Shown piece after piece: positions 193 to 26,825 of a DNA stretch of 30,917 nt. A program made the position numbers and the translations under genes. Below the pieces are notes generated by a model. The model searched no databases, was not told where the DNA came from, and was given only the letters and a program-made list of their open reading frames with translations. The DNA lies in the sequence record SRR31156797_4649; one strand, written 5' to 3'. The first letter of the stretch is position 1. Each line of letters starts with the position of its first letter.

Positions 193-1451
193 TACTTTTC
201 AACTTCAATGTTTTTAAATTTACCTGATTTATTATTGATGGGCAACTCATCCAGAAATTCAACCAGTGGAGGTTCAGCATTAAAATGACTTTTCCAAATT
301 CCAATTATTTTTGATTTAACCTGCTCCTCAACAAAACCTTCTTTGAGTATTGCCTGAAAAAATATTTGCCCGGTTTTCTTTTGCAAAAGTCGGAATTGCC
401 TACATTCGGTAAAATCTCTATACACACTCCAAACTTGTTGGCGATATAGTTTCTCACCAGATTTTAACTGTATTACATCTTCTACACGCCCAATAATACG
501 GCCCATTTTATTGTAGTTTTTGTCAAGGATTTTCACATGGTCACCGATCTTGTATCGTATAAAAGGCATGGTTTTGTTTACCAGATTAGTAATAACAAGC
601 TCGCCAAACAATTCACCATCTATTTCTATTGGGTTTACATATTCCAAAATGATTGAATTCAAAGGATAGTTATATTTTTGCGCTCCGGGATTTGTCCAGG
701 CCAGAGTTGGATGTTCCATACATCCATAAACATCAATTATTTGAGCTTGCAACCTTGATTCAATGCCATTACGTACGTCCTGAAAAAGTGTTTCCCCAAA
801 AAGTACTACGTATTTCACATTCAGCTTCATGTTTCGCCTATACAATTCATCTGTCAAAATTTTCAGATAACTTGGAGTAGACGAAAGGATGTAAATTTTA
901 CGGCCTTGAAGCTTTTCAATTATTTCATCAGTTTGTGTAAATACAGTATAAGCCTCACGGCGGAACAAACCAAGGTATTTTTGCGCATAGTGCATAAATG
1001 ATTTTCTTTCAATTTGTTCTTTTTGATGAAAAACACCTATAAGTAGGAATCTCTTAAACGGGTTGTATTTTTTTAAAGAAAAAAAAGTACGAAAATAACT
1101 TGTAAAATACTCCTTCTTATTCAAATAGGTATCAAACGGCTTTCCTGTGGAACCACTCGTTGATCGCTTAATTAACTTTGTAAAATCCGGGCGTGTAATA
1201 ATTTGCTCAGGTGTATAATTCCGCATATCATCTTTTGAGATAACAGGCAGTTTTTTCAAATCATCAATGGAATGAATATGCAAATCATCTGCCGGGACAT
1301 TTTTGTATATTTCCCTGTAAAAATGGGATTTGGTTAACGCCCTGTTCAATAGCTTATTAAATTTCTTAACCTGAATTTTCTGAACCCGTTTTACAGGCAA
1401 AACCTTTGTAAAATAGTATTCAAGTGTATATCGAAGTAAATAAAATATCAT
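192..1451 (-). CDS. Phenylacetate-CoA ligase-like / CapK-like adenylate-forming enzyme
   Basis: 419 aa. AMP-binding motifs STSGSTG, YGCME, RYKIGD, GRVED and C-terminal SGKFK. Lies in a polysaccharide operon, as CapK-like proteins do. Confidence 0.85.
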   Translation of the reverse strand: MIFYLLRYTLEYYFTKVLPVKRVQKIQVKKFNKLLNRALTKSHFYREIYKNVPADDLHIHSIDDLKKLPVISKDDMRNYTPEQIITRPDFTKLIKRSTSGSTGKPFDTYLNKKEYFTSYFRTFFSLKKYNPFKRFLLIGVFHQKEQIERKSFMHYAQKYLGLFRREAYTVFTQTDEIIEKLQGRKIYILSSTPSYLKILTDELYRRNMKLNVKYVVLFGETLFQDVRNGIESRLQAQIIDVYGCMEHPTLAWTNPGAQKYNYPLNSIILEYVNPIEIDGELFGELVITNLVNKTMPFIRYKIGDHVKILDKNYNKMGRIIGRVEDVIQLKSGEKLYRQQVWSVYRDFTECRQFRLLQKKTGQIFFQAILKEGFVEEQVKSKIIGIWKSHFNAEPPLVEFLDELPINNKSGKFKNIEVEK

Positions 1452-1468
1452 TTCTTTTCAAGGGTATA

Positions 1469-2581
1469 TTAAATTTCAGCGCTATTTACAATTTTGATAA
1501 TCTTTGAGGTCTCCTCATTGCTTTGGACCGGGCTCATTGGCAAACTTAGAACCTCATTGTGAATTTTTTCTGTAATTGGAAATTCCATATTACTCCATTC
1601 CTTATAAGCCTCTTGCTTATGAGGTGGAATTGGATAATGGATAAGTGTTTGTACGCCTTTTTGTTTGAGAGACTCAATCAACTTTTCCCTTTTCGCATGG
1701 CGAATAGCAAAAATATGCCATACATGTTCTTTATAATCATAAGTCTCATTCATTTCGGGCAAAAAAATCTCTGGATGATTAATTTCTTGTATATATCTCT
1801 TAGCAATTTCTCTTCTAATGGCATTTTCACGGTCTATATACTTGATTTTCACAGATAAAAAAGCTGCTTGTATCTCATCCATTCGGCTGTTCAATCCTTT
1901 GTACTTGTTCACGTATTTTTTATGTGATCCGTAATTGGAAATAGCCCTAATCGCTTTTTCGTGATCTTTGGATTTGGTTGTTACTGCACCGGCATCTCCT
2001 AAAGCACCCATATTTTTCCCTGGATAAAAACTGAATCCGGCAGCATCGCCCAAAGCACCGGATTTTACACCCTTCCATTGGGCGCCAAATGCCTGGGCAT
2101 TATCTTCCACAATTTTTAGATTGTAGTTTGTAGCTATCTTTTCCAGTTCTTCACTCCAACAAATTCTCCCATACAAATGGACAACCATAATTGCTTTAGT
2201 TTGCTCTGTTATAGCTGCTTCAATTTTATCAATATCAATGTTATATGTACCTATATCTGGTTCGATTAAAATCGGTTTTAAACCATTATCGCTTATGGCT
2301 AAAATACTGGCAATGTAAGTATTGGCCGGAACAATAACCTCATCGCCAGGTCTCATATCACCTATTTCAATATATGCACGAAAAATCAACCGCAGCGCAT
2401 CTAAACCATTGGCTACAGCAATAGCATTTGATGCCCTTGTATATGTTTTTAATTCTTCCTCAAACAATTTTACATACTCTCCAAGCAAATACCAACCGGA
2501 ATCGATTACTTCTGCAGCAACTTGCTTTAGTTCATCAGCATATTGCTGATTAATTTTCTGTAGATCAAGAAACTTTATCAT
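1469..2581 (-). CDS. fdtB: DegT/DnrJ/EryC1/StrS PLP aminotransferase, FdtB/QdtB-like (dTDP-3-amino-3,6-dideoxyhexose transaminase)
   Basis: MIKFLDL start, [27 protein letters not shown] (PLP lysine), [18 protein letters not shown]. Two FdtA-like isomerases are in the same operon. Confidence 0.88.
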
Positions 2582-2584
2582 GTA

Positions 2585-3253
2585 TCAATCCATTTTTACT
2601 TTTTTCATAAACTTAGCTGGAGTTCCCACATGAATTTCATAGTCGGGTATATCTTTAGTAACCAACGCACTTGCCCCTGCCACAGCATAATTTCCTAATG
2701 TGACTTTTTCAATAACTCTGGCTCCAAGGGTTACATCAGAAAACTTACCTATTTTCACATATGAGCTGGTTATAGATCCCACAGAAAAATGACAACAATG
2801 ACCTACCGTAGTATTATGACCAATTAATGCGTTAGCCATAACCAAAGAACATTTTCCAATATGAGCTGCAGGACCAATATAACTATTTGACATAATAAAA
2901 ACGCCGGGTTCCAGCACAGCATTGTCGGCAATAAAAGCCGTTTTATGAACTATGGTTGCATACCTATCATCTGGTATATTCAAAGATAAATAAACCTCTT
3001 CACTTTTCACATTCCTTCCGATCATATGAATAGCAAACATAAAGTAGTAATCTTCTTTAAGGAACTTTTCTATTTCACCTGTCCCGCCTAAAACAGGATA
3101 TCCATTAATAGATTTTCCTTTTTCAAAATCATTTAAGAAACCTGCAACCTCCCATTCAAGATCGTTAAATCTATTTCGATTATCTTCAATGCATGAGGCT
3201 ACCACTCCGCCATTTCCTTCTCCACCTATAATAATTACTTTCTTACTTGCCAT
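2585..3253 (-). CDS. NeuD/PglD-family hexapeptide-repeat sugar N/O-acyltransferase
   Basis: N-terminal IIGGEGNG Rossmann-like segment, left-handed beta-helix repeats, IGHN histidine, C-terminal VGTPAK. Confidence 0.85.
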   Translation of the reverse strand: MASKKVIIIGGEGNGGVVASCIEDNRNRFNDLEWEVAGFLNDFEKGKSINGYPVLGGTGEIEKFLKEDYYFMFAIHMIGRNVKSEEVYLSLNIPDDRYATIVHKTAFIADNAVLEPGVFIMSNSYIGPAAHIGKCSLVMANALIGHNTTVGHCCHFSVGSITSSYVKIGKFSDVTLGARVIEKVTLGNYAVAGASALVTKDIPDYEIHVGTPAKFMKKVKMD

Positions 3254-4139
3254 TATTCTTCTTATTTGAAATTAAATTTGCTTTGTTTAATACGTTTTTA
3301 GCTGTTGCTACCATTGGTGGTCCAATAAATTTACCATTCATAATGGCCACTCCTTTCCCATCTTTTTCTGCTTGTTCGGATAACTTAAGCATTTCTGAAG
3401 CAGAATCTATTTCTTTTTGTGTTGGACTAAAATACTGATGTGCTAATGTTATTTCTTTTGGGTGAAGTACCAGCATTCCTTCAAAACCTAATTTTTTAGC
3501 TGTTTGTAAGTTGTTCTCAAGATCTTCAAGGTCATGAACATTAATATGAACAGTATCAATAGGTATTACTTTATTGGCACGAGCTGCCATAGCAATCATT
3601 GCACGTGGAGTAAACAAACTTTCATGTTCCGCATCATGGATTCCCTGTAAATCAGTGATAAAATCCTCTGAACCATAAGCTATTCCAACTACCCTATCTG
3701 AAGCCTGAATAATCTCCTGGGCATTAAGCACAGCTGCTGCCGTTTCAATCAATGGAATAATTTTGAACGTATTCTTAGCTATACCTTTCTCATATTCAAT
3801 TGTTTCCAACAACTTATCAAAGAAATAAACATCCTGACCTGTTGTGCTCTTTGGATACATAAATCCATCAACACCCTCAACAGTTAACTGATGTACATCT
3901 TTTAACAAATGTCCACTTTCACGGTCATTTACACGAGGAAACACAAGATGATTTTTAAATGCTCCGGAACCTACAAATTTCAATATTTGATCTCTCGCAA
4001 TTTGCTTATTTGTATTCGGTTGGACTGAGTCCTCAATATCAAGAAGCAACACATCAGCTTGTGATTTAGCGGCACTTATCATGAGTTTCTCATTATGTGC
4101 CGGCACAAACATCAAACTCCGCATTAAGTATTTATTCAT
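3243..4139 (-). CDS. CitE / HpcH-HpaI family acyl-CoA lyase (citryl-/malyl-/citramalyl-CoA lyase-like)
   Basis: RSLMFVP, LDIEDSV, PRVN, PLIET, YGSED, GFEG..VLHP motifs. No citD or citF in the window. Confidence 0.88.
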   Translation of the reverse strand: MNKYLMRSLMFVPAHNEKLMISAAKSQADVLLLDIEDSVQPNTNKQIARDQILKFVGSGAFKNHLVFPRVNDRESGHLLKDVHQLTVEGVDGFMYPKSTTGQDVYFFDKLLETIEYEKGIAKNTFKIIPLIETAAAVLNAQEIIQASDRVVGIAYGSEDFITDLQGIHDAEHESLFTPRAMIAMAARANKVIPIDTVHINVHDLEDLENNLQTAKKLGFEGMLVLHPKEITLAHQYFSPTQKEIDSASEMLKLSEQAEKDGKGVAIMNGKFIGPPMVATAKNVLNKANLISNKKNNGK

Positions 4140-4596
4140 TGACTTTCCTTTTTATTAATACCTTCCTTCTAAAGCTTAGGACATCTTCATTGTTTTGATT
4201 ATACGCAATTGTTTCTACATACACAATTCCTCTGTCTTTTTTGGATTTTGAAGGTATTACGTCTAATACCTTTGTTCGTGCATATAATGTATCATTGATA
4301 AAAACAGGTCCTAAGTGTTTCACTTCCTCATATCCTAAATTTGCAATTGCCTTTCCACTAATGTCCGGAACAGTTATTCCAACAACAATACTAAAAACCA
4401 GGGTCCCAACCACAAGCACCTTTCCATGCTGATTTTTAGCAGCATAGTCTATATTAGTATGCACAGGATGATGATTCATTGTCAAAAGAGAAAAGAAATT
4501 ATTATCGCTTTCAAAAATGGTTTTTGACAATTGGTGTTCTATAATCTGACCTTTTTTAAAATATTCGAAGAAGTTTCCAAGATTTGATCCTTTCAT
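4132..4596 (-). CDS. MaoC-family (hot-dog fold) acyl-CoA hydratase/dehydratase
   Basis: 154 aa. FFEYFKKGQ, TMNHHPVH, ANLGYEEV..PVFINDTL, RGIV. Overlaps the CitE-like gene by 8 nt. Confidence 0.88.
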   Translation of the reverse strand: MKGSNLGNFFEYFKKGQIIEHQLSKTIFESDNNFFSLLTMNHHPVHTNIDYAAKNQHGKVLVVGTLVFSIVVGITVPDISGKAIANLGYEEVKHLGPVFINDTLYARTKVLDVIPSKSKKDRGIVYVETIAYNQNNEDVLSFRRKVLIKRKVNE

Positions 4597-4605
4597 AGAC
4601 TATAA

Positions 4606-5016
4606 TTATTTATATTCAATATAATCTTTATATTCTCTTATATAATCTGCCTCATCATATTTGTGGGAAGCTAAAACCAGGCATATTGCTCCAGATGAAA
4701 AGCTTTTCTCAGCTGCCCATATTCCGGGTGGAATATGCAAACCAAAATATGGCCGATTTAACATTACAGTTCGTTTTGTAATGCCATCATCTAACTCTAC
4801 TTCGAAGCTACCACTTGCAGCAACCAAAAATTGATGACACTCCTTATGGGCGTGGGCTCCCCTGTCCTTTCCGCCTGGTATATCATAAATATAAAATATC
4901 CGATTTATATCGAATGGAATTTCCTTTGAATTACTAACTGGGGTAATATTTCCTGCTCTATTCTCTATTTTAGGTAGTTCGATTATACTGCAATCATATA
5001 CTGACATCTTATTCAT
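4606..5016 (-). CDS. fdtA: FdtA/QdtA-family cupin, dTDP-4-keto-6-deoxyglucose 3,4-ketoisomerase
   Basis: RAGNI, RIFYIYD, RGAHAHK (both catalytic His), GLHIPPGIW, LVLAS..YDEADYIR. The real start may be the ATG at 5007. Confidence 0.87.
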   Translation of the reverse strand: MNKMSVYDCSIIELPKIENRAGNITPVSNSKEIPFDINRIFYIYDIPGGKDRGAHAHKECHQFLVAASGSFEVELDDGITKRTVMLNRPYFGLHIPPGIWAAEKSFSSGAICLVLASHKYDEADYIREYKDYIEYK

Positions 5017-5407
5017 TTACTTTATATTTTAAAAAATCATCATAGCTTCTAATATAGTCCAGTTCATTATAATCGGTAGAGCTTAATATAAGCGCTAAAG
5101 AATTTGTTGAAAAGCTCTCAATTTGACGCCAATATCCTTCTGGAATATATAACCCATAATAACTGCGATTCAGAGCAAATTTTCTTTTTTCTTTTCCATC
5201 ATCAACCACCACATCGAAGCTCCCTGATAGTGCAATAATCAATTCTTTTTGTTCTTTAAATGCATGTCCTCCTCTTTTTTCACCACCGGGAACATCATAT
5301 ATCCAATAGCACCTTTTAATTTTGAAAGGTATGTGATTATTTCCTTCAAGAAACGACAAATTACCTCTTATGTCTTCAATCTTAGGAAGTTCAATTAGCT
5401 TTATCAT
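5009..5407 (-). CDS. Second FdtA/QdtA (WxcM-like) cupin with HAF in place of HAH
   Basis: DIRGNL, RCYWIYDVPGG, RGGHAFK, GLYIPEGYWR, DYIR. The ORF-track start at 5416 is TTG; I prefer the ATG at 5407. Confidence 0.85.
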   Translation of the reverse strand: MIKLIELPKIEDIRGNLSFLEGNNHIPFKIKRCYWIYDVPGGEKRGGHAFKEQKELIIALSGSFDVVVDDGKEKRKFALNRSYYGLYIPEGYWRQIESFSTNSLALILSSTDYNELDYIRSYDDFLKYKVNE

Positions 5408-5428
5408 GTAATTCAATCAATTTTATTG

Positions 5429-5584: not shown

Positions 5585-7198
5585 ATGAAATATTTAATTA
5601 TTTCTTTATTAACCTTTGTCTTTCTGGGTTCATGTAAAACTGAAAAGGTAAAAAAAGATTTATCTAAAACAGATTTCATCTACTTAAGTAATCAAAAATT
5701 TAAGCATAAAGATTCAACGTTTTTCCCATTAATGCTTAATTATCCTATATGTTTTAGAAAAATTGGTAACGAATATGTTGTTTCACCTTTCCATGATTAT
5801 GAAATAGAAGGACATTTTGAGGGGAGCACAAAAGACAGCGCACTTCATCAAATTAAAGGTCACATGAAGTTAATCAAAGAGATGGGATTCAATACCATAC
5901 GCTTAGTTGCAGATCAAAATCTTTGGAGTATTGGGGATACAGAAACTTATGATATCGTAGTTTATAAAAAACACGATGAGTTTGAAAGATTGAGATTAAT
6001 AGATAATTACCAAATGTATTTTGACGGGATACATGAATTTATTGATATTGCCCAAGAGTTGGATCTTAGAATTATGCTTCTAATAAATAAACCATTTGAT
6101 GACGAAATAAAAGACTTTACAGAAGCCTTATTAAAAGAATTCAGTGATGAACCTACGATATTTGCATACGACTTTTTTAATGAACCATTATATTTTGACA
6201 ACAATAAAAAGGATAAAAACAGATCCAAAGAAGATGCATACAATATAGTTTCAGAATGGAAAACAATGATGGATGAAAATGCTCCAAATCAGCTACTTAC
6301 CATCGGATACTCTGAACCTATTGAGGTGCTTGAATGGGACCCATCAATTTTACCGGTCGATTTTGTAGCATTTCACACCTATCACCCTCTGAGAGTACCT
6401 AATGAAATTTACTGGTACAGCAAATACATAGGCAAGCCCTGGATGTTAGGAGAAACCGCCCTCCCTTCAGACGATGATTCAATTAAATATTCTGATCAGG
6501 TAATGTTTATGAAAGAAGCTTATCAAAGAACAATTGATTGTGGCGGAGCAGGTTTTGGTTGGTGGGCCTTTCAGGATGTAAACTGGGGAGGCGCGGGACA
6601 TGACATAACAAGCTTACTCAATAGAAAAGGTATTACCTGGACTAAGGATAAACAGCACAAAATAGTTGGAACTATGAAGCCTGCGGCAAAAGTAGTTAAA
6701 GAGCTAAAACATATGAAATCTACCCATGAATGCCCGTGTTGGGAAAACTATCAGAATATGTTAGGATATAACAACATGGTAATTAAAGGTAAAATCATCA
6801 ATGGAAACACACAAAAACCGATTGAAGGTGCTGTTGTAAGAGGATGGACAAAAAATTGGGCGGTTGGTTCACATACATTCACTGATAAAGAAGGAAACTT
6901 CATGTTATTTACTAACGCTCCATATTTTAACTTTGAAATTTCGGCCCCCGGAATGACTAAAATAAAATTCAATCAAGAAATCGAATACAAATCAAGGGAT
7001 GAAAACTCCCCACCGTTCGAATCATTGAAAAATGCAGACCTTGAATACCAAAGTATTTCTTACAAACCATTCTTGCAAAGAGATACAACAGGCAATTATG
7101 AAAAGATTTTTGATTTCAAAAACGATGCGTTTAAAAAATACCACTATATTGGTCATATGGAAGATAAAATCCTTTATCGTTTAGATTTTTTAGATTAA
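5585..7198 (+). CDS. Lipoprotein with a clan GH-A (GH5/GH2-like) TIM barrel and a C-terminal carboxypeptidase-regulatory-like beta-sandwich
   Basis: Signal peptide II (..FVFLGS-C17). MGFNTIRL, YDFFNEP (acid/base Glu), FHTY, WMLGET (nucleophile Glu), GFGWW. C-terminal IKGKIING.TQKPIEGAVV...TDKEGNF...ISAPG. Confidence 0.75.
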   Translation: MKYLIISLLTFVFLGSCKTEKVKKDLSKTDFIYLSNQKFKHKDSTFFPLMLNYPICFRKIGNEYVVSPFHDYEIEGHFEGSTKDSALHQIKGHMKLIKEMGFNTIRLVADQNLWSIGDTETYDIVVYKKHDEFERLRLIDNYQMYFDGIHEFIDIAQELDLRIMLLINKPFDDEIKDFTEALLKEFSDEPTIFAYDFFNEPLYFDNNKKDKNRSKEDAYNIVSEWKTMMDENAPNQLLTIGYSEPIEVLEWDPSILPVDFVAFHTYHPLRVPNEIYWYSKYIGKPWMLGETALPSDDDSIKYSDQVMFMKEAYQRTIDCGGAGFGWWAFQDVNWGGAGHDITSLLNRKGITWTKDKQHKIVGTMKPAAKVVKELKHMKSTHECPCWENYQNMLGYNNMVIKGKIINGNTQKPIEGAVVRGWTKNWAVGSHTFTDKEGNFMLFTNAPYFNFEISAPGMTKIKFNQEIEYKSRDENSPPFESLKNADLEYQSISYKPFLQRDTTGNYEKIFDFKNDAFKKYHYIGHMEDKILYRLDFLD

Positions 7199-7299
7199 TC
7201 ATTTTAAAAAAATCAAAGGAGGATAGAAACAAACAAAAAGGCTTTTATTCCAACAATATAAATAAAATGAATATTTATCTAAATGAATAATAAATAACT

Positions 7300-7452
7300 A
7301 TGATTAACTTATACATCGGACCCGGACTGGGCATTGGAACCATTGTATTGATTTTTATTATTGGAGGTATTGTGCTTTTTGCTTTTGGCTATATTTTTTG
7401 GCTGAAATTCAAAAAATTCTTCCGTAAAAAAGACAATAAAAAAAACGATTAA
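7300..7452 (+). CDS. 50-aa single-pass membrane protein with an N-terminal YIGPG motif (below the ORF-track length cutoff)
   Basis: Manual translation: MINLYIGPGLGIGTIVLIFIIGGIVLFAFGYIFWLKFKKFFRKKDNKKND*. A-rich leader, long hydrophobic stretch and strongly basic tail, in an otherwise empty intergenic gap. Confidence 0.75.
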   Translation: MINLYIGPGLGIGTIVLIFIIGGIVLFAFGYIFWLKFKKFFRKKDNKKND

Positions 7453-7573
7453 CAGCAAATTAATTAACTTACATGATTAGCATGCCTAGCTATGCATGTC
7501 ATTTCATCTGTTCAATCCATTTGAACTAATCAAATTTTTAGTTTGTTTCTAAAACTTCAAAAAACAAATTTAA

Positions 7574-8865
7574 ATGAAAAAGATACTGACAGTTTTTTCA
7601 ATAATTGTTATTTCATTGTTTATACTATCGCTTTTTGGCTGGATGGTTTATCAGATATCAAATAAAGATAAAAAATTTGGAGTTTTCACGGAACCGATCA
7701 AGTTTATGTACACTTTTCCAGACCTTTTTAAAAAGTCAGTTAAGGACGTAAAGACCCTACCCAAAACTTTTATAAAAACACCTAAAGACTTCAAACCAAT
7801 AAATAAACTTGAAAAAGATGTATTTGTGTTATCCACATATACTGACAAAAAAAATCCAGAGCTATTGTCCTAAGGAATCTTAAAAATGACTCAATTATTA
7901 AAAAATGGACTTTTGAAAATCCCTTCAATGAGGTTGCAAGAATTGTAAACCCTATTCTTCATCCAGATGGTTCATTAATTTATAACTTTTGGTATAAACC
8001 CTTTTATGGATTAAGAAAAATTGATACAGCAGGAAACTTAGTATGGAAACAGAATAAAGTAACATTTCATCATGGAATGAATTTAAATAAGGATGGAGAT
8101 ATTTGGGCATGTTCAAAAACTATCGGATGGGATGCAACAGGTAAATATAATACGGGTTATAGAACAGTATTTTATGATGATTATTCTATTACCAAAATTG
8201 ATAACAAAACTGGAAAAATACTTTTTCATAAATCCGTATCCCAGATTTTACATGAAAACAACCTTTCTAATTATTTATTAAAATCACCATACCCTAAAGA
8301 TCCAATTCACTTAAATGACGTTCAACCTGCACTAAAGACTACACCTTATTATATGGAAGATGATGTTTTCTTAAGTATGAAAAATATATCATTAATCATG
8401 CACTATAGACCTTCTACAAATGAACTAATTGAGTTAATCGAAGGGCCTTTTATAAGCCAGCATGATGTTGATATTATTAACGACAGCAGTATAGTGCTCT
8501 TTAATAATAATGTTTATGTCAAATGGACAGATGAAACAAAAAAACCACCAACGGATAATAGTCAACTATTAAATGTTGGGAGTTTCTATTCTAATATAGT
8601 AAGTTATGATTTAAAGAATAAAAAATACACTTTTATTGGAAAAGAAGCTTTTATAAAAAACAAAATCCGCACCTTCACAGAAGGTCTACAAGAATTTATT
8701 GACCCAACAACTTATTTCGTTGAAGAGCAAAACGCCGGAGAGAAAAACCCGGGCGTATTATGGGTATTTAAAGATGATAAAGTCATTTACAAAGATGTGT
8801 TTAAATCACAACACGAAGGATACCATCATTTACCAAACTGGACAAGAGTAATTAAAGAACATTGA
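7574..8865 (+). pseudogene. Frameshifted arylsulfotransferase (ASST-like) paralogue; the 7574-7873 and 8077-8865 ORFs are one gene
   Basis: Adding one A to the A8 run at 7847-7854 gives TDKKKSRAIVLRNLKNDSIIKKW, colinear with TNKSKTRDIVLMNLKNDSILKKW in the 9133 paralogue. The frame from 7855 has no stop until 8865. Restored length is 430 aa. Confidence 0.88.
8800..8849 (+). repeat. 50-nt direct repeat (49/50 identical) shared with 10342-10391 at the 3' ends of the ASST paralogues
   Basis: tttaaatcacaacacgaagga[t/c]accatcatttaccaaactggacaagagt in both copies. Confidence 0.9.
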
Positions 8866-9035
8866 TTATTCCTAACCTAAACACTAATTATAACTGATGA
8901 AACCATACTTTATATAACTTAGATTTTTTTTGAATTCAATTTATTAGAAAATATTACAAACAAATGACTACCAATATTTTGGTGTAGTAATATTCGTTTT
9001 ACAATGAATTTCTTTAAGATTCTACATTTTTAAAT

Positions 9036-9043
9036 TATTTTTG
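9036..9043 (+). promoter_or_regulatory. Bacteroidota -7 element (TATTTTTG) upstream of the second ASST
   Basis: TAnnTTTG followed by C, with TTTA 19 nt upstream. Shares the 12-mer TATTTTTGCGTT with the 5542 site. Confidence 0.55.
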
Positions 9044-9132
9044 CGTTCCAACATTTAGGTTATTAATGTATAAAATCAAATAAATATAGAATATAAAACC
9101 ATTTTCTCTTTATATAATAAAGTCTCAGAAAA

Positions 9133-10410
9133 ATGAAAAAACTACTAACTATCTTATCAATAATCGTAATTTCTCTTTTTCTATTATCCATGTTTGGATG
9201 GATGGTTAATCAAGTATCTAATAAGAATAAAAAATTTGGAATTTTGACAGAACCAATCAAATTTATGTATTCTTTCCCCGACCTATTTAAGAAATCAGTT
9301 AAAGAAGTGAAAGGGTTTCCCCAAACTTTTGTTCCTACACCAAAAGATTTTAAGCCAATAAATAAGTTAGAAAATGATCTTATAGTACTCACAGCCTACA
9401 CAAACAAAAGTAAAACAAGGGATATAGTACTGATGAATCTTAAAAATGATTCGATATTAAAAAAATGGGTCATTGATAAACCATTTAAGTACCATACCAG
9501 AATTAAGCACTCTATTCTACATCCTGATGGATCACTAATTTACATGCTTTTCAGTGCACCTCATAATGGGCTATACAAAATTGATTCAGCAGGGAATCAA
9601 ATATGGAGACAAACTGGATTAACATTTCATCATGCCTTAAATCTTGACAAAGATGGAAATATCTGGGCATGTACGATGAATCATCCATGGAAAACTACCG
9701 GAAAATATCTACTAGGAGATTTTTTCGTTTATTATGAAGATCATTCTATCACGAAAATTGACCACAAAACGGGCGAAATTTTATTTAATAAATCTCTAAC
9801 AGAACTCTTTAAAGAAAACGATCTGACCAATCAAGTTCTAAAATCTTCGAAACCAAAAGATCCATTCCATTTGAACGATATTCAACCTGCTTTAAAAACT
9901 ACACCTTATTACAAAAAAGATGACCTCTTTATCAGTTTAAGAAATCTCCATATGATATTGCACTACAGGCCCTCCACAAACGAACTTATAAATGTTCTTA
10001 CCGGGCCTTTTGTAAACCAGCATGACATTGACATATTAAATGACAATACGTTGGTAATGTTTAACAATAACACTTTTGTGGATGTAACACGAGACAAAAA
10101 CAATACTCCATTAGAAAACGAATTGGTGGACCTTGGTCATCTCTCTTCTAATATTGTCAGCTACAATTTCAAATCAAACAGCTATTCGGTCATTGGTGAG
10201 GAAATCTTCAAAAAAAATATCATCTATACTTATACTGAAGGATTGGTCGAGTTTATTGATCAAAATACCTATTTCGTAGAAGAGCAGAACACAGGAATAC
10301 TCTGGGTAATTAAAGATGATGAAGTAATCTACAAAAACGTATTTAAATCACAACACGAAGGACACCATCATTTACCAAACTGGACAAGAGTTATAAAAGA
10401 TTATAATTAA
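9133..10410 (+). CDS. Arylsulfotransferase (ASST / Arylsulfotran_2-like beta-propeller), N-terminally anchored and probably periplasmic
   Basis: 425 aa. MKK plus hydrophobic anchor. FHH, DPFHLND, ISLRN and QHD motifs match the His/His-Asn/Arg/His active-site set of PAPS-independent ASSTs. Confidence 0.8.
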   Translation: MKKLLTILSIIVISLFLLSMFGWMVNQVSNKNKKFGILTEPIKFMYSFPDLFKKSVKEVKGFPQTFVPTPKDFKPINKLENDLIVLTAYTNKSKTRDIVLMNLKNDSILKKWVIDKPFKYHTRIKHSILHPDGSLIYMLFSAPHNGLYKIDSAGNQIWRQTGLTFHHALNLDKDGNIWACTMNHPWKTTGKYLLGDFFVYYEDHSITKIDHKTGEILFNKSLTELFKENDLTNQVLKSSKPKDPFHLNDIQPALKTTPYYKKDDLFISLRNLHMILHYRPSTNELINVLTGPFVNQHDIDILNDNTLVMFNNNTFVDVTRDKNNTPLENELVDLGHLSSNIVSYNFKSNSYSVIGEEIFKKNIIYTYTEGLVEFIDQNTYFVEEQNTGILWVIKDDEVIYKNVFKSQHEGHHHLPNWTRVIKDYN

Positions 10411-10452
10411 TTTCAATCTTAAGTCAAGATTTATAAATATGGGGTTGATAAT

Positions 10453-10460
10453 TATTTTTG
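10453..10460 (+). promoter_or_regulatory. Possible -7 element (TATTTTTG) upstream of the sulfotransferase
   Basis: TAnnTTTG with TTTA 19 nt upstream, 59 nt before ATG 10520. Confidence 0.45.
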
Positions 10461-10519
10461 GTGAAAGTCTGTCAATTGAATTTGTTGACGATTAAATATT
10501 TATTAAAGGTAATAAGCAT

Positions 10520-11914
10520 ATGATCATTTATTACTCAATACTTGTTATTAGTTTTTTTATTATTGGTATAGTTTTACGCCTAAAAAGATTTATTTTTCAC
10601 AGGCTCGCAGAAAATAGTGTTGGGTTAGTCGATGGTTTAATTTCCCAAATTGAAGATGATGAGAAAATAAAATATGTGCAACAAAAAACCAATAGGTTAA
10701 TTACAGCTCTGTTCAAAATGTTTCTATTAATTATTATTGCTTTTGCCTTAGGAAGTATACCAATATTTATCTATGCAATATCAACAGGAACAACCTATCA
10801 GGAACTTGACTTCTCTTCATTTTATGCTATACTGTTCCTCTCGCTTGGCGCAACTTTGCCTTTCTTAATACCCATTGGTAAGAAAAAAACCTCGGAATAT
10901 TCTGAGCTATCGCAGCTATTGCACAGGATGGCACTCAATAATTACAATATCTCTTATCGTTTATTCAAGAGAGAACGTAAAAAACTTAGCAAAAAAGAAT
11001 TTAAAAAACGACCTGATTTTGTCATTATTTCAGGACTTGCCCGGGCAGGCACGACCAGTTTAATGAATGATTTATCAGAGGTTGATGGATTTGTATCACT
11101 CAATTATGCCAATATGCCCTTTCTAATGGCACCAAATACCTGGCGTAAGTTCTATAAACCAAAAACCGATAAGCTTAAGGAAAGAAGCCATAAAGATGGT
11201 ATTATGATTGGCTATAATTCCAACGAAGCACTGGAAGAGTATTTCTTTAAAGTAAAATCCCATGATAATTTTATCAAAACAGATTACTTAACAGAATACA
11301 CGGTTACAGAAGAGATATATAACGATTATATTGATTACCACAATATCATAAAACATGATGATAAAAGAACGTATCTGGCTAAAAACAACAACTTCATTTT
11401 ACGATACAATTCCATGCGGAACTTTAATGAGGAGTTTATAATGGTTCTAATGTTCCGTGACCCACTTACCCATGCGGCATCGCTAATGGAAAAACATATC
11501 GAATATCAAAAATTACAAAATGAAGACCCATTTGTACTTGAATACATGAATTGGCTTGGGCACCATGAATTTGGGTTAAACCAAAAACCGTTTGTTTTTA
11601 ATAACCATACGTATAACAATAAATTTGATAAAACCAGCTTAGACTATTGGCTGAAAAACTGGACTTATTACTATCAATACATACTAGAAATTGACCATTC
11701 CAACACGCTGTTGATTAATTATGATGATTATTGTGAAAAACCTGGATCTGTCATAGCGAAAGTATTACAAAAAATAAATATATCTGCTGACATACCTGAT
11801 TATAAAGCATTCATCAATTCGAGAAAAACAAGCTGGGAATTCGACATTAACCTTTATGAGGAGGCAAAGGAAGTTTATGCAAAACTTATTGAAAAGTCGA
11901 CTGAAATTCAATAA
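10520..11914 (+). CDS. PAPS-dependent sulfotransferase with three N-terminal TM segments
   Basis: 5'-PSB loop IISGLARAGTT, 3'-PB MFRDP, KNN and INYDD motifs. Hydrophobic segments at about aa 1-18, 62-86 and 100-117. Confidence 0.85.
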   Translation: MIIYYSILVISFFIIGIVLRLKRFIFHRLAENSVGLVDGLISQIEDDEKIKYVQQKTNRLITALFKMFLLIIIAFALGSIPIFIYAISTGTTYQELDFSSFYAILFLSLGATLPFLIPIGKKKTSEYSELSQLLHRMALNNYNISYRLFKRERKKLSKKEFKKRPDFVIISGLARAGTTSLMNDLSEVDGFVSLNYANMPFLMAPNTWRKFYKPKTDKLKERSHKDGIMIGYNSNEALEEYFFKVKSHDNFIKTDYLTEYTVTEEIYNDYIDYHNIIKHDDKRTYLAKNNNFILRYNSMRNFNEEFIMVLMFRDPLTHAASLMEKHIEYQKLQNEDPFVLEYMNWLGHHEFGLNQKPFVFNNHTYNNKFDKTSLDYWLKNWTYYYQYILEIDHSNTLLINYDDYCEKPGSVIAKVLQKINISADIPDYKAFINSRKTSWEFDINLYEEAKEVYAKLIEKSTEIQ

Positions 11915-12050: not shown

Positions 12051-14387
12051 TTACTCTTTTAAACCCTTGAGTAGTTTAACATAAAAATTAGTTCCTGATT
12101 CAGACTCTTCAATACCTAATTCACCTTTATTAAGATGTACTAACTCATTGATAATTTGTAATCCCAATCCTGTTCCTTTTTCTCCATCTGTACCCTGCTT
12201 ATTCATATTTGGTTTGCCTGAAAGAATTTCGTGTAAAGTATCGGGTTTTAAGCCTACTCCTGAATCTTTTACATTTAGTTTAAGATAATTGCCAATTTGC
12301 TGAGTAGAAATAACAACATAACCCTCAGTAGGAGTGAATTTTATGGCGTTTGAAATTAAATTACGAACAATAGTATGAAGCATAGACTTATCAGCAATTA
12401 CCATTGTGTGTTTTTCTAGTTTATTCTCAAGCTTAATTGATTTAAAATTAGCATTATGAATAAAATGATTTACATTATACTCTACCACTTCGCATAAATC
12501 AATTGTTTCAGAGTGAGTTTTAAGAACCTGGGTTTGAGAACGAGACCATGCAAGTAAGTTTTCAAGCAACTCAGTTAATGTAGTGGATGATTGGTAAATA
12601 GCATTAATGTATTTTTTATTTCTTGAGTTAAAATTAGGATCCATATTTTGCTCAAGCAAATAGACAAATCCATTAATATTATTCAATGGGTTTCTTAAAT
12701 CATGTCCAATAATAGACAACAATCTATTTTTAGTATAATTTAGTTTTTCTAATTGTGCCTTTTTATCTTTTAACTCTATTTCGGCCATTTTTCGTTCATG
12801 AATATCCTGAGCAAAAACCAAATCAGCTGGTACTCCCTGCCAATCTATTTTAACCGCATTAATTATAGCCCATCTATATTCACCATTTTTAGTTAATATT
12901 CGAACATCATAGGCTGGAATTAACTCTCCTTTTAATCTTTCCTCATAATTTTTCTTAACAAACGCACGGTCATCAGGATGAACAATTTCATAAAAAGATA
13001 ACCTATTCTCCTCTTTATATTTATAACCAGAAAATTTCTCAACTGCCTCATTGGCAAATAGCACATAACCATCTTTTGCAACAAAAACTCCTTCAGAAGT
13101 ATTTTCCAGAACTGTTCTATATTGATAATTACTGTGTTCTAATTCTTTTTCAGCTTCTTTTTGGGCAGTAATATCTCTAAAAAAAGCAAGTGTACCTATA
13201 ACTTCACCTTTATTATTGATATTTGGAATTGCATGAACAAAAAGATTTACTTCATCTCCATCTGGTCTTAAAATGTCTAATTCATAACCTGAAGTCTCTC
13301 CTTTTGAACGTTTTTTTGTTTCTTCAAGAACCAACTTCTTTTGCGATTTGCTTAAAAAACTCTTTAAAGATTTTCCAATTAATTCGCCTTCTGACACACC
13401 AAAAATACTTTCTGCTGCACGATTTGCAAAAGTAAAATTCTCATCTTTATCACTTATCGCTACACCATCCAGTTGATTTTCGATAAGTAACTTATACTTA
13501 TCTTCACTTTCAGCAAATGCTTTTTGGGTATCCTTTAAATCCTGAATATCAATGACAACACCTACACTATATAAAACCTCCCCAACTTCATCTCTAACTA
13601 CATTTGAAGACAAATTCACCCAAAAAACCTCTCCGTTTTTCTTAATATATCTTTTATCAATATTATATTCATCGAGCTTTCCTGCAAAGATCTTTTTAAT
13701 ATATTCTTTCTCCTCCACAAGCTCCTCATCATAAGAAAAATCTGTAATTTTTAATTCCAAAACTTCATTTACACTATAGCCTAACATATCAGCAAATTTC
13801 TGATTCGCTTCTATAACCTCATATTTGCTGTTAGCGATGGCTATTCCGGCACTGGACTGCGTAAAAATACTTTTAAAAAGCTCTTCACTTTTATGCAGCT
13901 CATCTATTGCATTCTTCTTTTCCCCAATATCCCTTGCAATTACCTGGCATCCTATCAGCTCATCATTTTCGTTGCAAACAGGAATATAATCAGCTTCATA
14001 CCATGATTTTCCATACTTGGTTTGATTCAACTCTTCATATTTAATTAACCTTTTTTCAGATAATGCTTTTTGCATTCTGGCATAAAAAAGATCAGCTTGC
14101 TTTTTCTCAAATACATCCCAAACTGATTTGCCAATTAGTTCATCAGGTGAAAGACCAACCTCATCTGAGGCAATTTTATTGTAAGCAACAATATCTCCAT
14201 TAGGCTTGTAAAATGCCACATAAAAATTTGTATTTCTAAAAACCAACTCATAATCAACGCGCAATGCTTCAAGTTCTGCATCGTTAGCTTTAACAATATA
14301 ATCACGTGATTCAATTTGGCGCAATCGAAACTCTAATTCCGCCACCCTTTTTTGCAGGTCATCGTAGGTTGGTTTGTCTTTAAGCAT
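12051..14387 (-). CDS. Cytoplasmic multi-PAS sensor histidine kinase
   Basis: About four PAS/PAC repeats ending RDIG, IDIQ, RDIT and QDIH. H-box IGHDLRNP, N-box NLISNAIKFT, DSGVG, GTGLGL. No TM segment. Confidence 0.93.
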   Translation of the reverse strand: MLKDKPTYDDLQKRVAELEFRLRQIESRDYIVKANDAELEALRVDYELVFRNTNFYVAFYKPNGDIVAYNKIASDEVGLSPDELIGKSVWDVFEKKQADLFYARMQKALSEKRLIKYEELNQTKYGKSWYEADYIPVCNENDELIGCQVIARDIGEKKNAIDELHKSEELFKSIFTQSSAGIAIANSKYEVIEANQKFADMLGYSVNEVLELKITDFSYDEELVEEKEYIKKIFAGKLDEYNIDKRYIKKNGEVFWVNLSSNVVRDEVGEVLYSVGVVIDIQDLKDTQKAFAESEDKYKLLIENQLDGVAISDKDENFTFANRAAESIFGVSEGELIGKSLKSFLSKSQKKLVLEETKKRSKGETSGYELDILRPDGDEVNLFVHAIPNINNKGEVIGTLAFFRDITAQKEAEKELEHSNYQYRTVLENTSEGVFVAKDGYVLFANEAVEKFSGYKYKEENRLSFYEIVHPDDRAFVKKNYEERLKGELIPAYDVRILTKNGEYRWAIINAVKIDWQGVPADLVFAQDIHERKMAEIELKDKKAQLEKLNYTKNRLLSIIGHDLRNPLNNINGFVYLLEQNMDPNFNSRNKKYINAIYQSSTTLTELLENLLAWSRSQTQVLKTHSETIDLCEVVEYNVNHFIHNANFKSIKLENKLEKHTMVIADKSMLHTIVRNLISNAIKFTPTEGYVVISTQQIGNYLKLNVKDSGVGLKPDTLHEILSGKPNMNKQGTDGEKGTGLGLQIINELVHLNKGELGIEESESGTNFYVKLLKGLKE

Positions 14388-16653: not shown

Positions 16654-18465
16654 CTATTTAATTTTAATTCCAAAGATTGTAATGTCATCAAGCTGCTCCT
16701 CATCGCCCCTCCAATTTTGATATTCATCAATAAGAAATTCTTTCTGTTTACTCATAGCTTTTTCAGAAATGTTATGCAATAAATCAAAGAATCTTCTGGA
16801 CTGATATTTTCGACCCTTTTCACCACCAAACTGATCTTTATAACCATCAGAAAAAAGATATATTTTATCGCCTGGCACTACATCATAGGATTCGGCATTA
16901 AATTCTCTTTCACTCATATAATAACCAATTGGATTGTAAACAGGTTTCAATAGTTTAAATTCTCCATTAGAAATAAGTAAGGCACTTAAATTTGCACCGG
17001 CATAATGTAATTTGTAATCATTCTTATCATACACGCATACAGCCATATCCATACCATCATGATGTCGCGATTCACTAAATACAGACTTGAACTGAACCCT
17101 CAATTTTTCCAAAATACGATTTGGTTTAGATAAATCTGTTGTAGCTATTACTTCTTGCAATAATTTAACTCCTAACATTGTTAAAAAACCACCTGGAACA
17201 CCATGGCCTGTACAATCTGCAACCGCAAAAATGGATAAGTCATCAGTCTCTTTGTAATAATAAAAATCACCTGAAACAATATCCTTAGGTTTAAAAATTA
17301 CAAAGTTCTCATAGTGCTCGTTAATATTATCGCTAATTCTCAGTACAGCTTCCTGAATTATTCGCGCATACTCAATACTATCCATCATATTTTGATGGGT
17401 TTCTTCAATGCGTTGGTTTTTAACCGCAACCTCCTCAAGTACAGCCTTTAACTCATCAGCATAGTCCTGTAATTCTCGCTGATTTTCATCCAATTCCAGA
17501 TTTTTTCGCTTAAGTTCATCATTAAACTGTGACTGAAGTTCATTTTTTTCAATGAGCGTTTTAGCTTGCTCATTCATCATATCCTCTTGTTGTTTTCTGG
17601 CAGTGATATCTACTAAAAATATTAGTATTGCAGGCTTTCCATCCCATAATAAAAATACAGCATTGATTTCGATCCAAATAACCTCGCCATTTCTCTTTAC
17701 TACCCGGAAAGAATACTTAGTTGGCACCTCCTCACCACGCATTCTTTTGGCATAATTATTCATCACAAATTCTTTGTCTTGATGATAAATAATTTTTTCA
17801 AACTTCGATTCAAAAAGCTCCTTTTGACTATAACCTAAGACGTCATACGTAGCAGGATTGGCATATTTGATGCGTTGGTCCTGAAGAATAAAGATAGCCT
17901 CAACACTATTATTTAGAATACTATCAAGTTTATATTTGCTTTCAAGAACTTCTCTCTCGGCAATTTTACGCTTGGTTACATCCATCATAATAGAAAATGA
18001 TTGCAATGGTTCTCCATTTTGATCATATGAAACTTCTGAGGATATTAAAACAACAATTACTTCACCATTCTTTTTAATCATTTCCGCCTCAAACTCACTT
18101 AAGTAACCATTCTTGAGCAATTCATTATATTTTTCCCTATACCTCTCACGCAAATTACCAGCAAAAAAGTTTTCAGACTTCTTTCCCAATACCTCTTCCT
18201 CTGTATAGCCTAAAATTTTTAACCAAAAATTATTTACAAATAATAATTTTCCTTCCAGATCAATGCTATGCATCATTATAGGGGAATTATCAAATAGCTT
18301 CTTGAATATTGCATCGCCCTTCGTGCAAATATCCTTACTTAATTGCCGATTGCGCTTAATAATGAGTAACGAAAAAACAATTAAAATCAATACGAAAATG
18401 GCCAATAAAGAAATTACTAGCAAATCATTTCTATGCAACCAATCTATTTTAGTTAATATGAGCAT
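16654..18465 (-). CDS. Membrane-anchored PAS-PAS / coiled-coil / SpoIIE (PP2C, RsbU-like) phosphatase
   Basis: N-terminal TM and two PAS/PAC domains. PKDIVSGDFY, ADCTGHGVPG, DGMD, FSDGYKDQFGG, QLDDIT motifs. Confidence 0.92.
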   Translation of the reverse strand: MLILTKIDWLHRNDLLVISLLAIFVLILIVFSLLIIKRNRQLSKDICTKGDAIFKKLFDNSPIMMHSIDLEGKLLFVNNFWLKILGYTEEEVLGKKSENFFAGNLRERYREKYNELLKNGYLSEFEAEMIKKNGEVIVVLISSEVSYDQNGEPLQSFSIMMDVTKRKIAEREVLESKYKLDSILNNSVEAIFILQDQRIKYANPATYDVLGYSQKELFESKFEKIIYHQDKEFVMNNYAKRMRGEEVPTKYSFRVVKRNGEVIWIEINAVFLLWDGKPAILIFLVDITARKQQEDMMNEQAKTLIEKNELQSQFNDELKRKNLELDENQRELQDYADELKAVLEEVAVKNQRIEETHQNMMDSIEYARIIQEAVLRISDNINEHYENFVIFKPKDIVSGDFYYYKETDDLSIFAVADCTGHGVPGGFLTMLGVKLLQEVIATTDLSKPNRILEKLRVQFKSVFSESRHHDGMDMAVCVYDKNDYKLHYAGANLSALLISNGEFKLLKPVYNPIGYYMSEREFNAESYDVVPGDKIYLFSDGYKDQFGGEKGRKYQSRRFFDLLHNISEKAMSKQKEFLIDEYQNWRGDEEQLDDITIFGIKIK

Positions 18466-18668: not shown

Positions 18669-19580
18669 TTATATACGGTATATTGTTAAATTATTGCTCT
18701 CCACATAGTTTAATAACTCACTATTATTCAATGCAAAAACCATCAAAAATCCACCACCACCGCTACCACACAATTTCATTATCCAACCATTTCGATTTAA
18801 TCCAGTTTCCCAATGCTTTTTCATTGATTCCGGAATCATCTCACTCAAATTTGCGTATTGCCAAAGCGACAATTCTTTTAATAACTTTTGAAAGTTGGGA
18901 TCATTTGATTTGTATATGGAGTCAATAACCTTATTAACCAATGTGGAATATTCGCGATGATTTAATACGCCCTGATCAACTTTAGCCAGATAAGACTTAA
19001 CCAGAGGAGCTGTTTCTGACACCTGACCTGTATCAATCAGATAAACGCCACTTACTCCATTGTGCTCAAAATCTGGATGTTTCACCTCTACAAATGAATT
19101 ACTTTCAAATAGTAAAGGTTGGTTAAAAAATGCTACCAGGGGATCAATACCAGATGATTTTCCGTGAAAAAAGCTCTCCATAGCAGCTAATCTTTCCCTT
19201 ATATTTAAATCCCCTTCATTATAAACATATTTATCATAAATAGCGGCAATTAAAGCTCCGGAACTACCTACACCATAGCCCTGTGGAATATTTGAATCAA
19301 AGAATAATCCTGATTCAATATCATTCAAGAAACGATCAGTTTCAATTTTAAATTCCGAAAGGTGAGCACCAAAATTCTGAGATAGGAAACCAGCGTAATT
19401 TTTCAGATTCCTATTGGAAATAACTGCAGCTCTATTTTCATTTGATTTTAAATATTTAAACTGTCCACTATATTTTTTCAAAGGAATTGCCAACGCTTTT
19501 GATTGATGAATAATACTATACTCCCCAAAAAGCATCAGTTTGGCATAAAAAGATTTGTTATTTAGGTCTTTACCTATCAC
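18669..19580 (-). CDS. Mevalonate-kinase-family GHMP kinase (Bacteroidota type)
   Basis: GTG start overlapping the mvaD stop. KLMLFGEY, IPQGYGVGSSGA, FHGKSSGIDP, KLCGSGGGG. Confidence 0.88.
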   Translation of the reverse strand: MIGKDLNNKSFYAKLMLFGEYSIIHQSKALAIPLKKYSGQFKYLKSNENRAAVISNRNLKNYAGFLSQNFGAHLSEFKIETDRFLNDIESGLFFDSNIPQGYGVGSSGALIAAIYDKYVYNEGDLNIRERLAAMESFFHGKSSGIDPLVAFFNQPLLFESNSFVEVKHPDFEHNGVSGVYLIDTGQVSETAPLVKSYLAKVDQGVLNHREYSTLVNKVIDSIYKSNDPNFQKLLKELSLWQYANLSEMIPESMKKHWETGLNRNGWIMKLCGSGGGGFLMVFALNNSELLNYVESNNLTIYRI

Positions 19581-20659: not shown

Positions 20660-20661
20660 TA

Positions 20662-21579: not shown

Positions 21580-21630
21580 ACACTACCTTATTTGTTGTTT
21601 TGTTTAAAGATAAGAAATTTAAAGTTAATG

Positions 21631-24100: not shown

Positions 24101-24110
24101 AATCAATTTT

Positions 24111-26821: not shown

Positions 26822-26825
26822 AACT

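Follow-up and report, generated by a model that had tools for sequence, protein, structure and literature searches.

A tyrosine-headed membrane peptide, arylsulfate sulfotransferase-like proteins and a PAPS-type sulfotransferase form a widespread gene cassette, a candidate trans-membrane sulfuryl relay

The stretch of DNA analysed here, called the window below, comprises 30,917 nucleotides of sequence record SRR31156797_4649. Between positions 7300 and 11914 it carries a gene for a small membrane peptide, two genes for proteins resembling arylsulfate sulfotransferases (ASSTs), named ASST-a and ASST-b, and a gene for a membrane-bound sulfotransferase (ST) of the type that uses 3′-phosphoadenosine 5′-phosphosulfate (PAPS). 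A first-pass annotation made from the letters alone had described a YIGPG micro-protein, ASST-like genes and a PAPS-type ST with three transmembrane (3-TM) spans as co-oriented, and all four elements were located on the plus strand. Its count of two ASST-like genes holds in that both are present, whereas the break in the reading frame of ASST-a had been overlooked. The features of the locus, with the open reading frame (ORF) list, family matches or AlphaFold2 (AF2) models on which each call is based, are as follows.

7300–7452, plus strand: single-pass membrane peptide of 50 amino acids (ORF list)
7574–8865, plus strand: ASST-a, an ASST-like beta-propeller with a membrane anchor, frame broken once (ORFs, PF14269); its pieces in the ORF list are 99 amino acids at 7574–7873 and 262 amino acids at 8077–8865
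7847–7854, plus strand: A8 homopolymer, the site of the frame loss in ASST-a (sequence, translations)
9133–10410, plus strand: ASST-b, an intact ASST-like protein of 425 amino acids (PF14269, AF2 model)
10520–11914, plus strand: ST of 464 amino acids, three hydrophobic spans and then GKKK (ORF list, PF13469)
10520–10879, plus strand: 3-TM membrane domain of the ST (alignment A1, AF2 helices, loop charges)
10880–11914, plus strand: PAPS-type sulfotransferase domain, predicted to be cytoplasmic, with the motifs GLARAGTTS and RDPLTHAAS (PF13469, Foldseek, motifs)

The window peptide is MINLYIGPGLGIGT followed by one TM helix and a Lys-rich tail; LYIGPGLG stands at its N-terminus (with the Tyr at position 5), the helix carries Gly-rich packing motifs, and the tail is predicted to be cytoplasmic. 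In a related contig (run X2), eight of the ten differences from the window in 7357–7419 fall at third codon positions. Of the sequencing runs searched, one DNA run contains the stretch and may be its source, whereas no RNA run is listed for it; the Logan contigs that fitted were short pieces. The frame of ASST-a is shifted by a one-base indel in the A8 run and continues in the new frame from about 7846; read through, ASST-a is 59% identical to ASST-b over 335 amino acids with the HH, HLND and QHD motifs kept. The indel could be a sequencing or assembly error, slippage-prone phase variation or the sign of a young pseudogene. Both proteins match PF14269 (Arylsulfotran_2) above the curated cut-off (ASST-b, E = 9.7e-32; the 262-residue part of ASST-a, E = 7.1e-24), relatives also match PF05935 (3.7e-10 and 8.3e-8), and NCBIfam gave no match for the window peptide, ASSTs or ST. 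The nearest named relatives are consecutive genes of Salinivirga cyanobacteriivorans, L21SP5_00939 (ASST), 00940 (peptide) and 00941 (ST). Besides Salinivirga, the cultured bacteria that carry the cassette include Winogradskyella, Xanthomarina and Formosa. The four window genes are best explained as one copy of an autonomous, widely distributed cassette.

Starting from the ST (alignment A1, 23 sequences), 80 loci were collected from species-representative genomes of Bacteroidales and Flavobacteriales, and the presence of the partners was scored by tblastn. The peptide was found in 80/80 of these loci and an ASST in 79/80; at more than 50% query coverage an ASST was present in 76/80, the remaining four loci having at most 1455 bp upstream of the peptide. 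The genes follow the order ASST-peptide-ST on one strand with the exception of four loci, namely L057 (peptide-ASST-ST), L002 (ASST-peptide-ASST-ST), and L026 and L075, where two ASSTs come first. The gap from the peptide stop to the ST start is at most 15 bp in 76 of 77 loci, with overlap or abutment in 62, and the gap from the ASST stop to the peptide start is at most 30 bp in 75 of 76.

Whole genomes gave the same picture. Of 401 Bacteroidia genomes sampled evenly, 8 were matched by the ST query and 9 by the ASST query, the latter comprising the same 8 and one genome with a weak partial match of 64 residues, and the ASST adjoins the ST in all 8 (Fisher p = 6e-16 for the co-occurrence of ST and ASST). 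The peptide query (E ≤ 5e-8) matched 7 of the 8 ST genomes, always adjacent to the ST. In the eighth (L083) the cassette is divergent; inspection of the ORFs by eye revealed its peptide, which may carry a cleavable signal peptide or start at an internal Met. Matches to the ASST number 2–4 per genome in 5 of the 8 module genomes, while the ST match is single in all 8; because the ASST is often duplicated and ST and peptide are single, it is suggested that one donor supply feeds several acceptor specificities.

A further collection was seeded with the peptide, using the signal-peptide alignment A4 alone, and gave 79 metagenome loci from at least 532 confirmed stretches, with GC contents of 24–68%. 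Among the loci with room for the neighbour, an ASST lies directly upstream in 41/44, an ST directly downstream in 33/35, and both in 25/28; L109 and L122 are without an ASST, L125 and L184 without an ST, and L127 has its ASSTs on the other strand. This last locus holds three to four ASST-like genes opposite to the peptide-TM-ST genes, the largest ASST expansion seen per donor unit. The three families thus co-occur almost perfectly whether the search is seeded from the ST, from whole genomes or from the peptide, which is the outcome of the gene-neighbourhood check proposed in the first-pass annotation. Beyond the cassette, ORF clustering revealed no conserved neighbour, the next-best cluster being present at 15/80 genome loci and 4/79 metagenome loci.

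Some cassettes join their parts in one reading frame. In L057, peptide and ASST form a single frame of 486 amino acids (6544–8004); P0323 (1010 amino acids) joins peptide, ASST and ST, with PF14269 at 204–470 and PF13469 at 711–878; and P0372 (620 amino acids) consists of the peptide, extra TM helices and the ST. The parts of the cassette are genetically inseparable and are sometimes a single polypeptide. In total, 180 confirmed stretches were counted in species-representative genomes, besides the metagenome stretches given above, and the peptide profile A3 matched 399 clusters at E ≤ 1e-3 among 1.84 billion representatives.

The ST was assigned by family profile, fold and motifs. The window protein matches PF13469 (Sulfotransfer_3) marginally (28.1 bits versus a cut-off of 27), and relatives score 68.9 bits (L083), 56.4 bits (P0323) and 41.4 bits (the split ST of L169). 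In the AF2 model (predicted local distance difference test, pLDDT, 87.9), helices span residues 2–21, 46–89 and 101–116, and all 11 Foldseek matches at E ≤ 1e-3 are PAPS sulfotransferases, including Stf1, Stf9, the Alicyclobacillus ST 3rnl and TPST1/2, at TM-scores of 0.24–0.36 on the whole query. A search of PDB chains with A1 gave no sequence-level ST match. G172-L-A-R-A-G-T-T-S180, R313, P315 and S321 are invariant in the 23 sequences of A1, and the equivalents G58, L59, R61, G63, T65, R205 and S213 are invariant in 37 STs encoded as separate genes. The P-loop-like GxxRxGTT and RDPxxxxxS are what we take to be the binding motifs for the 5′-phosphosulfate and the 3′-phosphate. By model and motif, the ST has the fold and nucleotide-binding residues of PAPS enzymes, and presumably PAPS is its donor.

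Outside Bacteroidota, the metagenome loci mostly encode the ST as two genes, one for a 3-TM protein of ~125 amino acids (46 loci) and one for a soluble ST of ~350 amino acids without a signal peptide (45 loci). A Glu in the membrane is invariant in the split 3-TM protein, whose loop 1 carries the motif ISDHWKEK and whose C-terminus has a Tyr and an Arg; this protein matched no Pfam or NCBIfam family. The separation of the 3-TM and ST genes indicates that the cassette has four functional parts, two of which are fused in Bacteroidota. The earlier description of a 3-TM PAPS ST as one protein is accurate for the window, whereas in most non-Bacteroidota lineages the 3-TM protein is separate.

The AF2 model of ASST-b (pLDDT 88.6) consists of a TM helix (2–31), an amphipathic helix (36–60) and a beta-propeller. 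Foldseek ranked Cpz4 (9kf4, 9kf6) first (E = 2.6e-10; sequence identity ~13%), with a functionally uncharacterised Bacteroides protein next and then E. coli ASST, whose structures matched at E of about 4e-8 to 2e-7. That the nearest solved structure is Cpz4 lends weight to the analogy with the Cpz8/Cpz4 pair drawn in the first-pass annotation. The N-terminal beta-sandwich of the E. coli type has no counterpart in ASST-b, in which residues 1–60 form the TM and amphipathic helices and the propeller starts from about 66; the sandwich is a trait of the E. coli ASST subfamily and not of PF14269. H167, H246, N248, S268, Q296-H297-D298 and N312 are invariant in 81/81 aligned family members, and the invariant His, His-x-Asn and Gln-His-Asp come in the same order as His252, His356/Asn358 and His436 of the E. 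coli enzyme, an agreement in order. A Cys pair is conserved in 47/49 wide-family ASSTs, as expected for an exported protein. According to a 2026 review, His436 of E. coli ASST is transiently sulfated and surrounded by His252, His356, Asn358, Arg374 and Thr501, and the acceptors of ASSTs include tyramine, tyrosine methyl ester and the N-terminal-Tyr peptides Leu-enkephalin, kyotorphin and dermorphin, while the same review still calls the natural donors, substrates and roles of these enzymes unknown.

Relatives of the peptide were found in 68 protein clusters (E down to 5e-21). The motif Y[IV]GP[GS] with an invariant Tyr is present in every peptide copy of the 80 ST-seeded loci, and Y5, G7 and P8 are invariant in alignment A3. 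No Pfam or NCBIfam family was matched by the peptide, and the ESM Atlas returned only unnamed small clusters with scores of at most 0.87. For alignment A4, 40 matches of A3 were picked for their longer N-termini, which carry a signal peptide; in 40/40 of these chosen sequences, Ala is at –1 and Tyr at +1 of an AxA cleavage site, so the mature peptide very probably starts with the Tyr in the periplasm.

The peptide query also matched 50-residue peptides of a different module, with the head LY[IL]DPG[STI]GS, one TM helix and a basic tail. One of these sister peptides, used as query, matched 24/401 Bacteroidia genomes, four of which are cross-matches to the sulfation cassette. Among the 16 sister loci examined, 15 encode a protein of ~456 amino acids with a weak class I methyltransferase signal, mostly immediately downstream of the peptide or overlapping it. 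This protein is predicted to be cytoplasmic and starts with ..PGSFRDPSGF.., and the stop of the sister peptide overlaps its start. A multi-TM protein of ~494 amino acids occurs in 12/16; PF00884 (Sulfatase) was matched by two of three scanned members of this family (1.2e-10 and 1.6e-9), and three other members matched no family. Some sister peptides have a signal peptide that ends just before the Tyr. Examples of the sister module are as follows.

L081, 6347–9337: sister peptide module
L082, 6233–9306: sister peptide module
L188–L201: sister peptide modules in other genomes

Charge statistics and fusions together orient the cassette in the membrane. Lys and Arg average 0 in the N-terminal flank of the peptide and 6.4 in its C-terminal tail (n = 78). 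In the ST, they average 0.14 at the N-terminus, 7.0 in loop 1, 0.6 in loop 2 and 3.8 after the third span (n = 56 with three spans called), from which the 3-TM domain is predicted to have its N-terminus outside, loop 1 inside, loop 2 outside and its C-terminus inside. In the P0323 fusion, the chain passes through two spans on the way from the Tyr motif to the ASST domain, and through three more from there to the ST domain; hydropathy called four windows in this latter part, two of which are contiguous (one-residue gap) and correspond to the single AF2 helix 46–89, hence three spans. Because the number of spans between them is odd, the ASST and ST catalytic domains are on opposite membrane faces, and a PAPS enzyme belongs inside the cell. 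The span parity accordingly assigns the ST domain to the cytoplasm, with the ASST domain and the invariant Tyr predicted on the other side of the inner membrane. A cytoplasmic ST domain had already been proposed from the KKK after the third span, and both lines of evidence bear it out.

We regard it as probable that the cassette is a trans-membrane version of the two-step sulfuryl relay from Cpz8 to Cpz4, by analogy and by parsimony, since the sole characterised ST-ASST gene pair, Cpz8 and Cpz4, consists of a donor-maker and a transferase. In such a relay, the products of the cassette would come together as an inner-membrane complex that has a catalytic domain on either face. The cytoplasmic ST would spend PAPS to form a phenolic (aryl) sulfate at the inner leaflet, and the sulfate ester would reach the outer face through or along the small TM bundle, to which 3-TM domain, peptide helix and ASST anchor would all contribute. 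The periplasmic ASST would then accept the sulfuryl group, for which His297 is the probable site given its analogy to His436 in E. coli ASST, and would transfer it to periplasmic or envelope acceptors, where PAPS is absent. The favoured role for the peptide is that of an obligate subunit, whose interfacial N-terminal Tyr would dock at the ASST or relay sulfate to it. The position of the Tyr on the periplasmic side, at +1 after AxA, argues against its crossing the membrane, yet fits with its meeting the ASST; a periplasmic relay or subunit is thus more likely than a membrane-crossing carrier. As carrier across the membrane, a housekeeping lipid-soluble phenol is our guess, since the cassette conserves no gene for making a carrier.

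Comparison with known systems shows what the cassette shares and what it adds. Cpz8 makes phenolic sulfate donors for Cpz4 in caprazamycin biosynthesis (Tang et al. 2013, as cited in PMC4257720). The trait in common is that a PAPS ST is encoded alongside an ASST-type enzyme that works independently of PAPS. The Cpz enzymes are soluble and act in the same compartment, whereas the two domains of the cassette are predicted on opposite faces of the inner membrane; the Cpz system has a dedicated carrier synthase (Cpz6, a type III polyketide synthase), whereas no such gene is conserved in the cassette; and the cassette adds a Tyr-headed peptide and a 3-TM protein or domain, neither with a family. 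AssT of E. coli CFT073 (3elq/3ets/4p05), whose structures are matched by the cassette ASST, is a periplasmic six-bladed propeller that works by a ping-pong mechanism via sulfo-His436. It is soluble and dimeric, about 570 amino acids long, with an N-terminal beta-sandwich, a DsbL/DsbI partner and no ST. The cassette ASST, at about 425 amino acids, is in contrast TM-anchored, without the sandwich domain and partnered with a PAPS-type ST.

In the Dlt system of D-alanylation, DltX is a tiny single-pass peptide with a conserved C-terminal Tyr, the group concerned is an acyl group, and DltB is an MBOAT channel. The likeness to the cassette is one of logic only, in that a group activated in the cytoplasm is used outside with the help of a tiny single-pass Tyr peptide; in the cassette, the Tyr stands at the N-terminus, a sulfuryl group would be transferred, and an MBOAT is absent. 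The fold of the ST domain is matched best by Stf1 and Stf9 of mycobacteria and by TPST1/2, which have P-loop-like motifs in common with it. Unlike the cassette ST, they are without a 3-TM domain, Tyr peptide or ASST partner.

Several observations weigh against a relay from PAPS to a periplasmic ASST. The transfer of sulfuryl groups, the use of PAPS and the assembly of a complex are all steps that we infer. No carrier-synthesis gene is conserved at the 80 genome or 79 metagenome loci, and the lipid phenol proposed as carrier is conjecture. APS (adenosine 5′-phosphosulfate) kinase is present in 9/10 module and 236/371 background genomes (p = 0.07; the background count includes one unpublished genome, G185) and is not discriminating. 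The TM-scores of ASST-b to Cpz4 and ASST are only about 0.5–0.56. Profile and sequence searches of PDB chains with A2 and the L169 ASST matched no ASST chain. R279, considered as the counterpart of Arg374 in E. coli, was rejected, since 19 of 49 wide-family members have Arg at this position and 23 have Asp. The charge bias around the ASST anchor is modest, with 1.96 Lys and Arg and 0.2 Asp and Glu in the N-terminal flank versus 2.1 and 1.3 behind the helix, so that the outward orientation of the ASST rests mainly on the fusions. The window copy itself is atypical in its order (peptide-ASST-ASST-ST), its intergenic gaps (121, 267 and 109 bp) and its out-of-frame ASST-a, and may be partly decayed. 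Finally, the sister peptide family serves a non-sulfotransferase module, so the peptide is not specific to sulfate. A complex prediction of ST, ASST-b and peptide, made without alignments, scored 0.01 and counts neither way.

The sister module is also what gives the best-surviving alternative its force. Here the peptide itself would be the sulfuryl carrier, a ribosomally made, membrane-tethered sulfo-carrier whose N-terminal Tyr is reversibly O-sulfated and serves as donor or obligatory intermediate for the ASST; the Tyr-headed peptides would form a superfamily of group-carrying peptides, with the sister module as second example. Sulfation could take place before translocation of the N-terminal tail, making the carrier single-use, or the short, uncharged, Gly/Pro-rich tail could be threaded back through the 3-TM domain. 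The Tyr-x-x-Pro-Gly-x-Gly head is common to two modules that each pair a cytoplasmic enzyme with an extracytoplasmic ester-handling enzyme, which points to a general role of the peptide and is the main reason for keeping a carrier peptide under consideration; the sister layout, with a cytoplasmic enzyme and an anchored Sulfatase-family protein, would be a parallel case of group transfer. The Tyr is invariant in 80/80 peptides, stands at +1 in 40/40 signal-peptide forms, lies beside the ASST in the peptide-ASST fusions and is the only phenol that the cassette encodes, with no carrier-synthesis gene conserved. ASSTs accept tyramine and N-terminal-Tyr peptides, as listed in the review, and the fold search with the ST brought up TPST1/2 as well. 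We nevertheless judge a sulfated carrier peptide unlikely. The Tyr is on the side opposite to the ST domain, and a form exported by Sec and cleaved by signal peptidase could hardly meet a cytoplasmic enzyme; one single-use carrier of 50–90 amino acids per sulfate would be costly; the TPST matches are weaker than those to Stf1/Stf9, and Sulfotransfer_3 is a broad family; and an interfacial Tyr with a Pro-Gly turn could be purely structural. If true, a carrier peptide would be a general, protein-borne answer to the absence of PAPS and ATP outside the cytoplasm, and the superfamily would take activated groups from nucleotide-dependent enzymes in the cytoplasm to transferases outside it.

It is more doubtful still that the cassette contains no donor relay at all. 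The ST would then sulfate a membrane or lipid-linked molecule inside, which is flipped, and ASST and peptide would act on the product later, for instance by trimming the sulfate, shifting it to another position or passing the product on; or the system would run in reverse, salvaging sulfuryl groups from external aryl sulfates to PAP (3′-phosphoadenosine 5′-phosphate). The linkage and topology data fit any joint pathway, the reactions of ASSTs are exchanges between phenols according to the review, and the named hosts are marine or saline by their record titles, where sulfated phenolics and sulfate are abundant. Against this stand the donor-maker and transferase roles of the Cpz8/Cpz4 pair, the only characterised one, and the requirement of ASSTs for a phenol as leaving group, since generic sulfated lipids and sugars provide none. 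No flippase or glycan gene is conserved nearby at the 80 genome and 79 metagenome loci. We know of no physiological precedent in bacteria for reverse PAPS synthesis.

Least credible, and in our view very improbable, is a reading in which the ASST-like propeller is a binding, scaffold or other catalytic domain and the ST acts alone on a substrate at the cytoplasmic face, with no periplasmic sulfation: propellers are versatile, many unrelated ones score close behind Cpz4 and ASST in Foldseek, the PDB-chain searches gave no residue-level active-site match and the candidate Arg at R279 is not conserved, but PF14269 is matched at E = 1e-31 to 1e-43 with PF05935 besides in relatives, the top structural matches are the two solved ASST types, and the His, His-x-Asn and Gln-His-Asp are invariant in 81/81 sequences across GC contents of 24–68%, as a conserved active site would show.

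The relay from PAPS to a periplasmic ASST, if confirmed, bears on a wider question. PAPS does not leave the cytoplasm, and sulfation beyond the cytoplasmic membrane of Gram-negative bacteria is therefore an open problem. The cassette offers a concrete and testable answer, in which a membrane complex would turn PAPS into an aryl-sulfate donor for periplasmic ASSTs. Confirmation would provide a physiological context for ASSTs, a new kind of small-protein function, and a PAPS-fed periplasmic sulfation device of biotechnological interest. Two of the four parts, peptide and 3-TM protein, lack a named family. Among the titles and abstracts retrieved on PF14269/Arylsulfotran_2, Cpz4 and sulfation relays, none describes such a membrane cassette; by these titles and abstracts, the widespread cassette is undescribed.

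On the other side of the cassette from the ST gene lies one further feature that the first-pass annotation had tied to it.

192–5416, minus strand: sugar-modification operon (DegT, PglD-like, 2x FdtA, MaoC, HpcH, CoA ligase)

This operon encodes two tandem FdtA/WxcM-like isomerases, a MaoC dehydratase, an HpcH/citrate-lyase-like aldolase, a PglD-like hexapeptide acyltransferase, a DegT aminotransferase and a PaaK/FlxY-like CoA ligase. It would serve an acylated amino-deoxyhexose, and its enzymes point to an unusual acyl donor produced locally. The proposed link of the cassette to an envelope polymer through this glycan operon did not survive the ORF clustering: the operon is on the strand opposite to the cassette, its adjacency is not conserved, and since no neighbour beyond the cassette is conserved at the genome and metagenome loci, the adjacency is incidental.

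Between the operon and the peptide gene, 5585–7198 (plus strand) encodes a lipoprotein-like protein of 537 amino acids with an NEP-containing, TIM-barrel-like N-terminal part, GH5-like as judged by eye, and a CarboxypepD_reg-like domain. A link of the cassette to this protein was considered and dropped, its relatives lying within 8 kb at 5/80 loci, which is too few. A scan for promoters and terminators gave counts not above those of shuffled sequences.

Downstream, a multi-PAS histidine kinase (12051–14387, minus strand) is convergent with the ST gene and is followed by a PAS-SpoIIE phosphatase (16654–18465, minus strand); with relatives at only 4 and 3 of the 80 loci, respectively, both are placed outside the cassette. 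Farther on, a mevalonate-pathway cluster adjoins leucine-catabolism-like genes (18669–22929 and 22946–28433, both on the minus strand). The former kind comprises a GHMP kinase, a diphosphomevalonate decarboxylase, a GYDIA-family GHMP kinase and an HMG-CoA reductase, and the latter an acyl-CoA dehydrogenase, a biotin carboxylase, an enoyl-CoA hydratase and a carboxyltransferase.

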